A stretch of 39,575 nucleotides of DNA from NCBI GenBank assembly GCA_020184695.1, contig JAANOX010000135.1:1-39575 (forward strand). The letters run 5' to 3'. Both the position numbers and the translations under genes were made by a program. Origin of the DNA: Histomonas meleagridis 2922-C6/04-290x (lineage: Eukaryota > Protista > Parabasalia). Each line of letters starts with the position of its first letter. The first letter of the stretch is position 1. A model generated the notes under the pieces. The model made no database searches. It had not been told where the DNA came from and worked only from the letters and a program-made list of their open reading frames with translations. Positions 1 through 11,741 of the stretch are shown in pieces.

Positions 1-271
1 GGCCTCCGATTCCTACAATCCCCGAGTGTGCTCGCTCCGCTCGCAACAAAATTCAAAATGATTTTTGTGAGCCATACAATTTGTTTAATAATTTGAATGC
101 GCATTAAATTTTGATAGAACACGAAACTTTTTGATAGAAACGATAGCACTTTTATGCCACTTTTCGCATAAACCTCACATGACCAACACGAATCGTCCTC
201 GGTTATCCTCGGTCGGACATTTATCTCATTCAATTTATCTTTGCCAGGAGGTTAATAGTCAAAAAACGACG
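1..271 (+). repeat. Left terminal inverted repeat of copy 1
   Basis: Reverse complement of 11360-11643 (e.g. GAGTGTGCTCGCTCCGCTCGC, CAAAATGATTTTTGTGAGCCATACAATT, GCCACTTTTCGCATAAACCT-like blocks); about 80-90% identity by eye. Confidence 0.93.
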
Positions 272-347
272 AATATTTTTTGAATGCATGGCAAACTTTA
301 TTCTAAATAATAAATAACTGTTATAATTATCACTTCATTTTTTCTTC

Positions 348-815
348 ATGTATGCGAATATTTTTTCCATTGCTCAAATTGCAGACAATATCAAAAATAA
401 GGATCTTTCTGCTATTGATGTTGCAATATTCTTTGATCCTAAATATAATAAAATGCGAAAGTACAACAATTTTATTATCAATCCAATTGGGATGATAATA
501 AAACATAGTAATTCTTCCGATTTTTATTTTATTCAAAGAGAAATAATAGAATTCTTTGACAATCCAATACTAATATCAATTCCAATTACTGAAAATAAGA
601 AACCACCTATAAATCAAAATGTTCATTATTTAGAAATAGACTTATTTCCATTGAAATGTAAATTTGGACGATGGTATGCGTCATATATCTATGAGTCATA
701 TAATGATGAAATTAATCGTACATTATTAGATAATGTAATCGTTAATAGTCAACATAAAGACAAAACTCATCAATCTGCTTTTGATTTAAAGCAGGATCTT
801 TTCAAGAGTGCCTAA
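348..815 (+). CDS. Hypothetical protein of the element (155 aa)
   Basis: Open ORF just inside the left TIR, ends in TAAA; no recognised motif. Confidence 0.5.
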   Translation: MYANIFSIAQIADNIKNKDLSAIDVAIFFDPKYNKMRKYNNFIINPIGMIIKHSNSSDFYFIQREIIEFFDNPILISIPITENKKPPINQNVHYLEIDLFPLKCKFGRWYASYIYESYNDEINRTLLDNVIVNSQHKDKTHQSAFDLKQDLFKSA

Positions 816-858
816 AAAATAAAAAAAAAATGATTTAATTTTTTTATTTATTTTGATT

Positions 859-1185
859 CTATAAAAAACTAGAAGGTGATGAATATATTCTACTATTTTG
901 TCTTTCAATTGGATAATTTGATAATTTTTCAAAATAAATTGAATTACTAATAGTTAGTTTTGGTAACTTTATATACTGGATAGATGGATCTATTAACTCA
1001 GTTTCTTTCTCTATCGTTGATGAATTTGATGTCTCATCGTCATAATAAGTCTTGATCACCTTCGTGCTACCAGACATTAATAAAAATGAAAATTTTATTA
1101 AATTATAATGAATTTTTGAAACTAAACTATGACAAATAGGACACAGGTGTTCTTTAAGGACGCCTGGGATTCGGAATAGTTTCAA
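859..1185 (-). CDS. Hypothetical protein with CxxC...H (HLCPICHSLVSKIH)
   Basis: 108-aa ORF downstream of the peptide array; possible zinc-binding motif. Confidence 0.45.
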   Translation of the reverse strand: MKLFRIPGVLKEHLCPICHSLVSKIHYNLIKFSFLLMSGSTKVIKTYYDDETSNSSTIEKETELIDPSIQYIKLPKLTISNSIYFEKLSNYPIERQNSRIYSSPSSFL

Positions 1186-1208
1186 AACAAAATATAAATA
1201 ATATTTTA

Positions 1209-1478
1209 TTATTTCTTTTGACCAACTAGTGCATTTGCTACACCATCTATAACAGGTGAGAATTTATCTGCTATTTTAATTCCTTTCGCAATAGCACCTG
1301 CATGACCAGGTAAATTTTCAATTCCAGGTATTTTACCTACTGTATTTACAACAAGTTTAGCTACTTTATTCCATACATTACCAATAAATCTTCCGACTGG
1401 TTTAATAATTTTATTTTTAATCCAAGCACCTGCTTTTTTAAATCCATTTTTAATTTTGTTCCAAAAACTCCAAGCCAT
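1209..1478 (-). CDS. Small amphipathic-helix protein 1 (adenovirus pVI-like membrane-active candidate)
   Basis: MAWSFWNKIKNGFKKAGAWIKNKIIKPVGRFIGNVWNKV: Trp/Lys-rich amphipathic pattern; intact 89-aa ORF. Confidence 0.65.
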   Translation of the reverse strand: MAWSFWNKIKNGFKKAGAWIKNKIIKPVGRFIGNVWNKVAKLVVNTVGKIPGIENLPGHAGAIAKGIKIADKFSPVIDGVANALVGQKK

Positions 1479-1513
1479 AAATAATAATATATATAAAATA
1501 TTAATTCTTTTTT

Positions 1514-1786
1514 TTATTGATAAAATATGAGATGGATCTTGTCATTTGCTTCATTTCCTATATTTTTAAATAATAAAATTATTTTATCACCGGTTTCAAA
1601 TATTTTATCCATAGGTAACTTTTTAAAAGGTCTTATTTTTTTAATGTCTTCTTTATGTTGTTTAGCAAATTCATAACCTTTCACAATATGTGGACTAATT
1701 TTTTTAAATCCTTCTTTCATTTTTTTGAGTAAAGGTTATATTTTCTTTATACCGTTTTTAAATTTGTTCCACAAACCCCACGCCAT
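1514..1786 (-). pseudogene. Small amphipathic-helix protein 2 (one in-frame TAA)
   Basis: ATG at 1786 reads MAWGLWNKFKNGIKKI*PLLKKMKEGFKK..., in frame with track ORF 1514-1720. Confidence 0.65.
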
Positions 1787-10956: not shown

Positions 10957-10976
10957 CGATAAAAAATGATTTTTAT

Positions 10977-11321
10977 TTAATAAATTAATAATAATTCTAA
11001 CATAAAATATTCTGGTTCAATTTCTTTACCATTCATTTCTTTAAACCATATTTTAAAATTTGGTTTTCTACTTTTTATATTCATATTTCTTATATTTAGT
11101 TCTATTTTCATTTGTATAAATACAAAAAAATAATCTTCATAATGATCACGTTCAATGAAATCAGCATGCATTGAAACATCAGATACTAAATATTCCTTAA
11201 ATTTACACTTACATTGTTGTACTACTATATATCTAGGATTTTGAGAATCCACAAATTCAGGCGGAAAACGGTTTTCTTTTTGTGAAGTACAAAAATACGT
11301 TTTAATCACTGGTTTAACCAT
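10977..11321 (-). CDS. Probable minor capsid (penton-like) protein
   Basis: Likely ATG at 11321 (MVKPVIKTY); beta-rich, ends FKIWFKEMNGKEIEPEYFMLELLLIY, resembling single-jelly-roll penton C-termini; adjacent to fiber; inference. Confidence 0.5.
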   Translation of the reverse strand: MVKPVIKTYFCTSQKENRFPPEFVDSQNPRYIVVQQCKCKFKEYLVSDVSMHADFIERDHYEDYFFVFIQMKIELNIRNMNIKSRKPNFKIWFKEMNGKEIEPEYFMLELLLIY

Positions 11322-11359
11322 AAATAAAAATAAAGGTTGTAATGAGACCAAACAATAAC

Positions 11360-11643
11360 CGTCGCTTTTTGACTACTAACCTCCGATCAAAGATAAATCA
11401 AATAGGATAAATGTCCGACCAAAGATAATCGGGGACAATTTGTGCTGGTTATGCGAGGTTTTTGTTAGGTTTATGCGAAAAGTGGTGCTAAAAGTGCTAT
11501 CGTTCCTATCAAAAAGTTTCGCGTTCTCTCAAAATTGAATGTGCATTCAAATATTCAGACGAATTGTATGGCTCACAAAAATCATTTTGATTTTTGTAGC
11601 GAGCGGAGCGAGCACACTCTGGGGATTGGAGGGGTCTGAGGCC
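11360..11643 (-). repeat. Right terminal inverted repeat of copy 1
   Basis: Reverse complement of 1-271. Confidence 0.93.
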
Positions 11644-11697
11644 CCTCCGGAGGGGTCCGAATGGCACCTCCGGAGGCCTCAGACCCCTCCAATCCCC
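11621..11697. other. GC-rich terminal hairpin: 23-bp perfect stem with two internal CCTCCGGAGG palindromes
   Basis: GGGGATTGGAGGGGTCTGAGGCC (11621-11643) pairs perfectly with 11675-11697; internal palindromes at 11642-11655 and 11667-11676. Confidence 0.95.
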
Positions 11698-11712
11698 CCA
11701 GTGAAAACTTAA

Positions 11713-11732
11713 GGTCGGGATCAGTCCCGACC
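11713..11732. other. Small 8-bp perfect hairpin distal to the terminal hairpin
   Basis: GGTCGGGA-TCAG-TCCCGACC. Confidence 0.85.
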
Positions 11733-11741
11733 GCATTATAT

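Follow-up and report, generated by a model that had tools for sequence, protein, structure and literature searches.

A Polinton-type element of Histomonas meleagridis without a polymerase gene is probably a defective copy from a compact, PolB-encoding family

In the available parts of the papers describing them, the Mavericks of Trichomonas vaginalis (TvMav) are nested, often gene-deleted elements of 10–28 kb, and only 74.3% of class 3 copies carry a polymerase (PMC12289875); their major capsid protein (MCP) is DUF4106 (PMC10120064). Maverick-Polintons and Polinton-like viruses (PLVs) of Metamonada remain unplaced for want of genomes, according to the accessible text of 10.64898/2026.06.19.733378. 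Here we describe an element of this kind in a 39.6-kb stretch of Histomonas meleagridis contig JAANOX010000135.1 (the window), which is AT-rich and holds many transposon pieces. The element, at positions 1..11735 (the unit, or copy 1), is accompanied by copy 2 (11736..13354) and copy 3 (31277..36255). An initial annotation had proposed a hairpin-capped virus with a full virion module and no replication gene, representing a distinct compact lineage. With moderate confidence, we instead consider the unit a defective, likely recombinant copy of a compact Polinton/Maverick-type family in which related lineages carry the polymerase PolB and from which the window's line likely lost it secondarily.

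Like TvMav classes 1–3, as far as PMC12289875 and PMC10120064 describe them in their available parts, this family is bounded by terminal inverted repeats (TIRs), multi-copy, nested and often gene-deleted, and its intact relatives have the same combination of PolB, a putative rve-type integrase, ATPase and double jelly-roll MCP. It differs in being smaller (an estimated ~15 kb compared with 15–26 kb) and in having hairpin ends, whereas terminal hairpins were not found described for TvMav in those parts. No DUF4106 match was obtained in the family MCPs (0/73 relatives at E 0.001), nor in the MCP of L010, a related locus introduced below, at E 0.01. The available text on the unplaced Metamonada Maverick-Polintons and PLVs (PMC10120064; 10.64898/2026.06.19.733378) presents, as in this family, highly divergent MCPs recognizable by structure only and likely parabasalid hosts; the unit differs from them in being defective. 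The PLVs without replication genes (VC40; many protist endogenous viral elements) likewise have a capsid and ATPase and no detectable replicase. However, in the accounts available that lack is group-wide, whereas close relatives of the unit have PolB.

Using the copy-3 ATPase as query, we obtained 53 homologues with identities up to 82%. The alignment of these led to 50 metagenome loci, several titled human gut metagenome, and to 8 contigs misbinned in gut bacterial genomes. None of these 58 ATPase-anchored loci (0/58) is complete end to end, and four (L013, L046, L009, and L003) are joined to bacterial genes, look like metagenome misjoins and add no independent lineage. The ATPase proteins P0001–P0003 come without genomic context. 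Contigs and polymerases of this eukaryotic virus family are also filed under bacterial bins and names (L052–L059, P0138, P0148, P0170, P0172). Short-read contigs were taken from runs X1–X4 of a single study, possibly the window's own source, and more than 10,000 short contigs in each of X1 and X2 match the family. Summed contig depth was lower for the spacer, the left end and C19 than for the ATPase, MCP and penton, but such sums are no copy number and were not used as evidence. Scans of IMG/VR with the ATPase, the ATPase alignment and the MCP alignment gave no relatives, and an Rfam search of 1-13500 gave no match. A 19-nt TIR pattern had a single match, in the GC-rich phage contig L051, which is unrelated and was rejected as chance.

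We searched all six frames of the whole window with two profiles, one built from 11 family PolBs and the other from the terminal-protein-vOTU region. Nothing scored better than E 1, and no similarity to PolB, terminal protein or vOTU was seen. The absence of PolB from the unit is real, as had been annotated, and the unit is without a replicase. Protein-primed PolB is a trait of autonomous Polintons/Mavericks; missing from the window, its catalytic sequence is present in 21/58 related loci (19/50 metagenome loci and 2/8 misbinned contigs), with PF03175 matches at E 1e-35 to 1e-43. Another 3/58 hold only the N-terminal part, and 34/58 have no match, mostly with the contig ending before the expected place. 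The 19 include a divergent PolB type with an endonuclease VII-like finger (L031:3-3053 and L042:11566-14103), missed by Pfam DNA_pol_B_2 and identified by motifs A, B, and C. This type points to polymerase swapping within the family, and the accessible part of 10.64898/2026.10.13.758929 treats replicase mosaicism as general.

In the closest lineages the gene order is PolB, C2, ATPase; C2 and the ATPase stand head-to-head, and C2 and PolB meet tail-to-tail. In the unit, the slot of PolB is filled by a 0.7-kb non-coding spacer and a chromodomain. The features concerned are:

348..815, plus strand: small conserved family gene C3 (profile of C3 relatives, E 1.5e-4; tblastn 23–30%)
3384..3608, plus strand: chromodomain-like open reading frame (ORF) with an in-frame stop (Pfam Chromo E 0.093; HP1 E 0.055)
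3609..4294, unstranded: non-coding spacer where the relatives' gene maps have PolB; no PolB or terminal-protein similarity
4295..4666, minus strand: conserved 123-aa family gene C2 (40–49% identity; profile E 7e-32)
4706..5513, plus strand: A32-type packaging ATPase, frame-broken at homopolymer runs; frame intact in copy 3
5545..7014, plus strand: conserved family gene C19 (DxNxDGxxD motif), frame-broken; also in PolB-bearing relatives
7053..7607, plus strand: conserved gene (the 7053 gene) with a homologue in PolB-bearing L042 (36% identity, E 7e-11)
11736..13354, plus strand: copy 2, consisting of just two genes, a C19 paralogue that has diverged (73%) and, joined to it, the 7053 gene (98%)
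31277..36255, unstranded: copy 3, with C2-ATPase-C19-7053 gene (97.5%), an ~80% integrase and an inverted 5' part of the MCP gene; no ends

L010 encodes PolB, C2, ATPase, C3, integrase, fiber, penton, MCP, peptide and C19, and L042 encodes integrase, ATPase, peptide, MCP, penton, fiber, C19, the 7053 gene and PolB. Because C2, C3, C19, and the 7053 gene occur in these PolB-bearing loci, they are no substitutes for a replicase. C3 follows the ATPase in relatives; a PHROG 'exonuclease' match to ORF 348-815 (E 0.0024) was rejected since it was not seen with the C3 of relative L001. Among the ORFs scanned there was no match to KilA, primase or helicase, and domain scans with Pfam and PHROG gave none to an HUH Rep or other terminal resolvase. 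An adenain/Ulp1 protease was not seen in a Pfam scan of ORFs from the window and relatives. As a side observation, a gene for deoxynucleotide monophosphate kinase (PF21448, E 4e-12) lies at L020:6530-7153, with the fiber gene on one side and the penton gene on the other.

Longer members with PolB beside the C2-ATPase block do exist among the relatives, but by alignment none of these shares the exact TIR sequence of the unit. The refuting evidence against a distinct lineage that relies on the host polymerase comes from the family and not from a copy with the same TIR. The presence of three copies had been taken to suggest a polymerase-less family. However, both additional copies are fragmentary, and copy 3 ends at 31291, precisely at the place of PolB in relatives. 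Copies 2 and 3 say nothing on this point because they do not cover the PolB slot.

To place the loss, we used an ATPase tree of 38 sequences (26 chosen from loci and 12 context-free proteins, less any that fell outside the length filter), rooted at the midpoint and with some outgroups on long branches. The window ATPase groups with P0001-P0002 (support 98/94) within a 100/98 clade that holds three PolB-bearing gut lineages. PolB-bearing L027, L031, L033, L035, and L042 lie outside that clade, and the 21 PolB-bearing loci fall into eight lineages of the tree. Because the tree nests the window among PolB-bearing lineages, the simplest reading is that PolB loss in the window's line is likely secondary.

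The ends of the unit consist of the following:

1..302, unstranded: left TIR, starting inside hairpin-equivalent sequence (81% inverted match to 11329-11643)
11329..11643, unstranded: right TIR (inverted match to 1..302)
11620..11735, unstranded: GC-rich terminal hairpin found by folding (11620..11700, plus a small 8-bp stem to ~11733)

Thus, the unit is TIR-bounded as annotated. The hairpin at 11620-11700 has a folding energy of -55 kcal/mol (z = -10; 0/200 shuffles equally stable) and contains internal sub-palindromes, with GAGC-like repeats adjoining. We take it to be similar to the inverted terminal repeat of adeno-associated virus. The annotated hairpin cap is seen at the right end; the window begins within the matching left sequence, and a left hairpin would lie outside the view, as would the left flank with any 6-bp target-site duplication of the kind typical of autonomous Polintons/Mavericks.

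This structure suggested a distinct compact lineage that never needed PolB and self-primes on terminal hairpins with the host polymerase, like a parvovirus-type replicon, for which hairpins at both ends and an HUH Rep or other terminal resolvase would be expected, and reduced Polinton-like groups without detectable replication genes have been reported (VC40, in the available part of 10.64898/2026.06.19.733378). We regard this as very improbable. Hairpins also end PolB-bearing L010 (31–33 bp, z -8) and terminal-protein-bearing L025 (branched and GC-rich, z -6), in both cases ~50–55 nt beyond a subterminal block that the two loci share (72% over 157 nt). Because L010 has both features, the hairpin accompanies PolB and does not replace it. 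In addition, the Pfam and PHROG scans gave no Rep or resolvase candidate, every assignable ORF of unknown function also occurs in PolB-bearing relatives, and the ATPase tree places the loss as secondary. L011 begins in a similar GC-rich remnant, and a hairpin in L044 (z -10) is not tied to an element end. A 12-nt motif common to the window TIR and the relatives' ends was rejected since its orientation is opposite to the hairpin.

A full virion module had also been annotated, but this does not describe the unit. Its capsid gene lacks residues ~212–346 of 539 and is frame-broken, as are the ATPase, the 5545-7014 ORF and the integrase. The virion genes besides the ATPase are:

1209..2038, minus strand: three tandem basic amphipathic 'MxWGxWNKIK' peptides (starts 1478, 1786, 2038; direct repeat D19)
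2074..3274, plus strand: MCP gene, internally deleted and frame-broken (70–86% identity to the L010/L011 MCP in pieces)
9223..10956, minus strand: fiber-like repeat protein, open frame (32% over 484 aa to the L008 fiber)
10977..11321, minus strand: candidate minor capsid (penton) gene, open frame (45–51% to the gene directly downstream of MCP)

Compared with the 539-aa L010 MCP, the capsid gene matches to residue ~211 and again from 347. Approximately 135 codons, about a quarter of the gene, are gone at 2700, so that the first barrel loses its end and the second its start, and the frame is further broken near 2410 and 3160. The missing middle is partly kept in copy 3 (35380-35683) and in short-read contigs. 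The gene is homologous to the L010 MCP, whose model is predicted to fold as a double jelly-roll, consistent with its annotation as a probable capsid. This model, from 18 sequences, is of low confidence (predicted local distance difference test, pLDDT, 47); its best structural match was the poxvirus scaffold (Z 8.1, rmsd 8.1, 314 aligned), with Sputnik MCP at Z 7.7 (rmsd 9.3, 353 aligned) and virophage and NCLDV (giant-virus) MCPs at E 2e-8.

Homologues of the penton, fiber, integrase and lytic-peptide candidates are common to the unit and its relatives. The PF04665 match of the A32-type ATPase is weak (E 0.011), and 11/53 homologues carry PF04665. The penton candidate is named by position, its homologues lying directly downstream of MCP in L005, L008, L010, L011, and L020. 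The fiber-like protein has phage tail-like PHROG matches. Homologues of the 'MxWGxWNKIK' peptides adjoin the capsid gene in L011, L010, and L042; in the unit, the second and third are frame-broken. By analogy, these are likely membrane-lytic virion peptides, a role we assume from a presumed likeness to adenovirus protein VI.

Adding 3.2 kb for PolB and 0.4 kb for the capsid gap to 11.7 kb gives an estimated full size of ~15.3 kb. L010 is close to this, at 14.4 kb to its hairpin with ~157 PolB codons and one end missing. Intact members would rely on a PolB of their own (terminal protein, vOTU, exonuclease, and palm) for replication and on the rve-like integrase for integration, and the A32 ATPase would load their DNA into a double jelly-roll capsid. 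Without PolB and terminal protein and with its shortened capsid gene, the unit could be copied only passively with the chromosome or, via its retained ends, by the proteins of a helper. It behaves as a derivative, either dead or dependent on a helper, of a Polinton-type virus that encodes PolB; it does not qualify as an autonomous Polinton, nor does it support a new lineage free of a replicase.

Several observations weigh against a simple defective copy. The nearest ATPases (79–82%, P0001–P0003) have no genomic context, relatives with context are only 64–67% alike and do not share the TIR sequence, and the evidence for PolB comes from the relatives' loci and not from this host. Moreover, two short-read contigs, one from X1 and one from X2, join the spacer to C2 (4164 to 4302), and the left-end gene is joined to the capsid gene in other copies (joint 924 to 2066). 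Because other copies share these joints, the polymerase-less layout may not be a one-off. Many frameshifts may also be assembly errors rather than decay, since 9/9 indels between copies 1 and 3 are in homopolymer runs compared with a baseline of 31%; the available part of PMC10120064 cautions about assembly errors behind such frame breaks.

These joints, together with diverged spacer copies in short-read contigs, would fit a non-autonomous, satellite-like subfamily amplified in the host, whose members would retain their ends and virion genes but depend on autonomous elements of the family for PolB and terminal protein. The initial annotation had raised a satellite as an alternative, and a parallel, likely helper-dependent subfamily does exist in the relatives (L011, L017, and L025). 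We consider this possible, although rather unlikely, for the unit. The TIRs of a recently mobile element should be near-identical, as is typical of autonomous Polintons/Mavericks, whereas those of the unit are 81% alike in a gapped self-comparison or 86% counting substitutions only. Substitutions amount to 14% between the TIRs compared with 2.4% between the internal genes of copies 1 and 3. The capsid gene is deleted, and the dependent form among the relatives retains a terminal protein of its own, whereas the unit has none. Selection estimates fall on both sides: some genes of copies 1 and 3 have dN/dS of 0.11 and 0.18 (9 and 17 changes), but other pairs involving copy 1 range from 0.4 to 2.6 on few changes.

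Indels confined to homopolymer runs suggest errors in a long-read consensus, the short-read contigs indicate a family of very many copies, and none of the short-read pieces listed spans the unit. The unit might then be an assembly chimera of at least two repeat copies, with a gene order and mismatched TIRs that do not belong to one molecule. This appears improbable because copy 3 repeats the order C2-ATPase-C19-7053-integrase and nested or mosaic joins also occur in relatives (L025). A defective copy of a PolB-encoding family remains our preferred explanation.

The likely helper-dependent subfamily has only the N-terminal part of PolB, located next to a TIR-like block and branched hairpin:

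L011:550-1713: PolB N-terminal part
L025:2622-3785: PolB N-terminal part
L017:3-278: PolB N-terminal part

These three loci form one clade in the ATPase tree, and their PolB stops at the same place, residue ~388, just before the exonuclease motif, with C2 directly behind. The 388-aa protein was modeled with a pLDDT of 86.7. Its top 16 PDB matches were 15 OTU domains and a tymovirus protease, over residues ~165–283, although the OTU-like match is modest (Z 4.8, rmsd 2.9, 88 aligned); the best viral match was mavirus PolB (E 2e-4). Cys191 and His275 are invariant in 85 sequences of the PolB N-terminus. Variants of the shortened gene have dS of ~0.5 and dN/dS of 0.16 and 0.20, and it is therefore under purifying selection. 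L011, L017, and L025 are likely a helper-dependent subfamily in which the predicted priming part is kept and the polymerase is borrowed. The relatives' PolB N-terminus fits the terminal protein and vOTU layout of polinton/mavirus pPolB in the accessible part of PMC11161782; the difference is that these three loci encode the N-terminal part alone. In adenovirus the terminal protein is likewise separate, but the vOTU stays with the polymerase.

The remaining features of the unit concern integration:

7569..8768, minus strand: rve-like integrase whose frame is broken near 8040-8260 (by profile, clearly homologous to the family integrase)
8699..9193, minus strand: ORF, possibly an N-terminal extension of the integrase; no family match

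The integrase is linked to PF00665 only via L042 (E 0.0057) and has no PDB sequence match. At the third acidic catalytic position, relatives have Asp (DDD type), whereas each of the two window copies (7569-8042 and 35010-35264) has Asn, although these differ from each other by ~20%. ORF 8699-9193 has no Pfam or PHROG match and none to the L001 integrase extension. The annotated chromodomain has the weak matches given above. Its frame is interrupted by a stop, its GC content is higher (0.43 vs 0.26), and none of the 50 metagenome loci holds a homologue. It is flanked by a 25-nt inverted repeat of 72% identity (3344-3368 / 3719-3743) and is likely a separate small insertion. Another chromodomain-like ORF, at 26552-26761, is presumed from its pattern and has no Pfam support. 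C19 behaves as a swappable cassette, because a short-read joint from 5517 to 7028 in other copies skips it; variant A is in copies 1 and 3, variant B in copy 2, and none in other copies.

Other elements lie elsewhere in the window. A 12.6-kb unit at 13416-26029, inserted after copy 2, has ~2.2-kb inverted repeats at 97% and holds mariner-type DDE pieces, a P-element-like transposase and a zinc knuckle. A broken ORF at 26875-27330 (minus strand), flanked by a 62-nt direct repeat (26026-26087 / 27450-27511), is 36% alike to a 168-aa arginine-headed protein of the small viral contig L060, which we take to be a CRESS-DNA virus capsid. At 37245-37716 there is a further, separate integrase of rve type (PF00665, E 2e-7), and at 38640-39437 an ISXO2-like transposase (PF12762, E 9e-20).

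The literature searched held no description of hairpin-ended or terminal-protein-only Polintons; subscription papers, Repbase and bioRxiv supplements may hold the family. The unit itself is an ordinary defective copy, and the unusual features belong to the wider family. We tentatively suggest a gut-protist polintovirus family with hairpin-closed ends that may have given rise repeatedly to helper-dependent offshoots, one with only the terminal protein and vOTU and one, the unit's, further reduced and host-amplified without terminal protein or polymerase. The family is of more value than the unit: the Polintons of Metamonada are unplaced, and this family is common in gut metagenomes, with the L010 MCP on 438 contigs and 761 MCP relatives at 50% clustering. 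A PolB that is split in nature, with its terminal-protein-vOTU half persisting by itself under purifying selection, offers a direct test both of the proposed vOTU cleavage of the terminal protein and of priming in trans by the polymerase of a helper. If a protein-primed element has hairpin ends, the model of its replication or integration would require revision.

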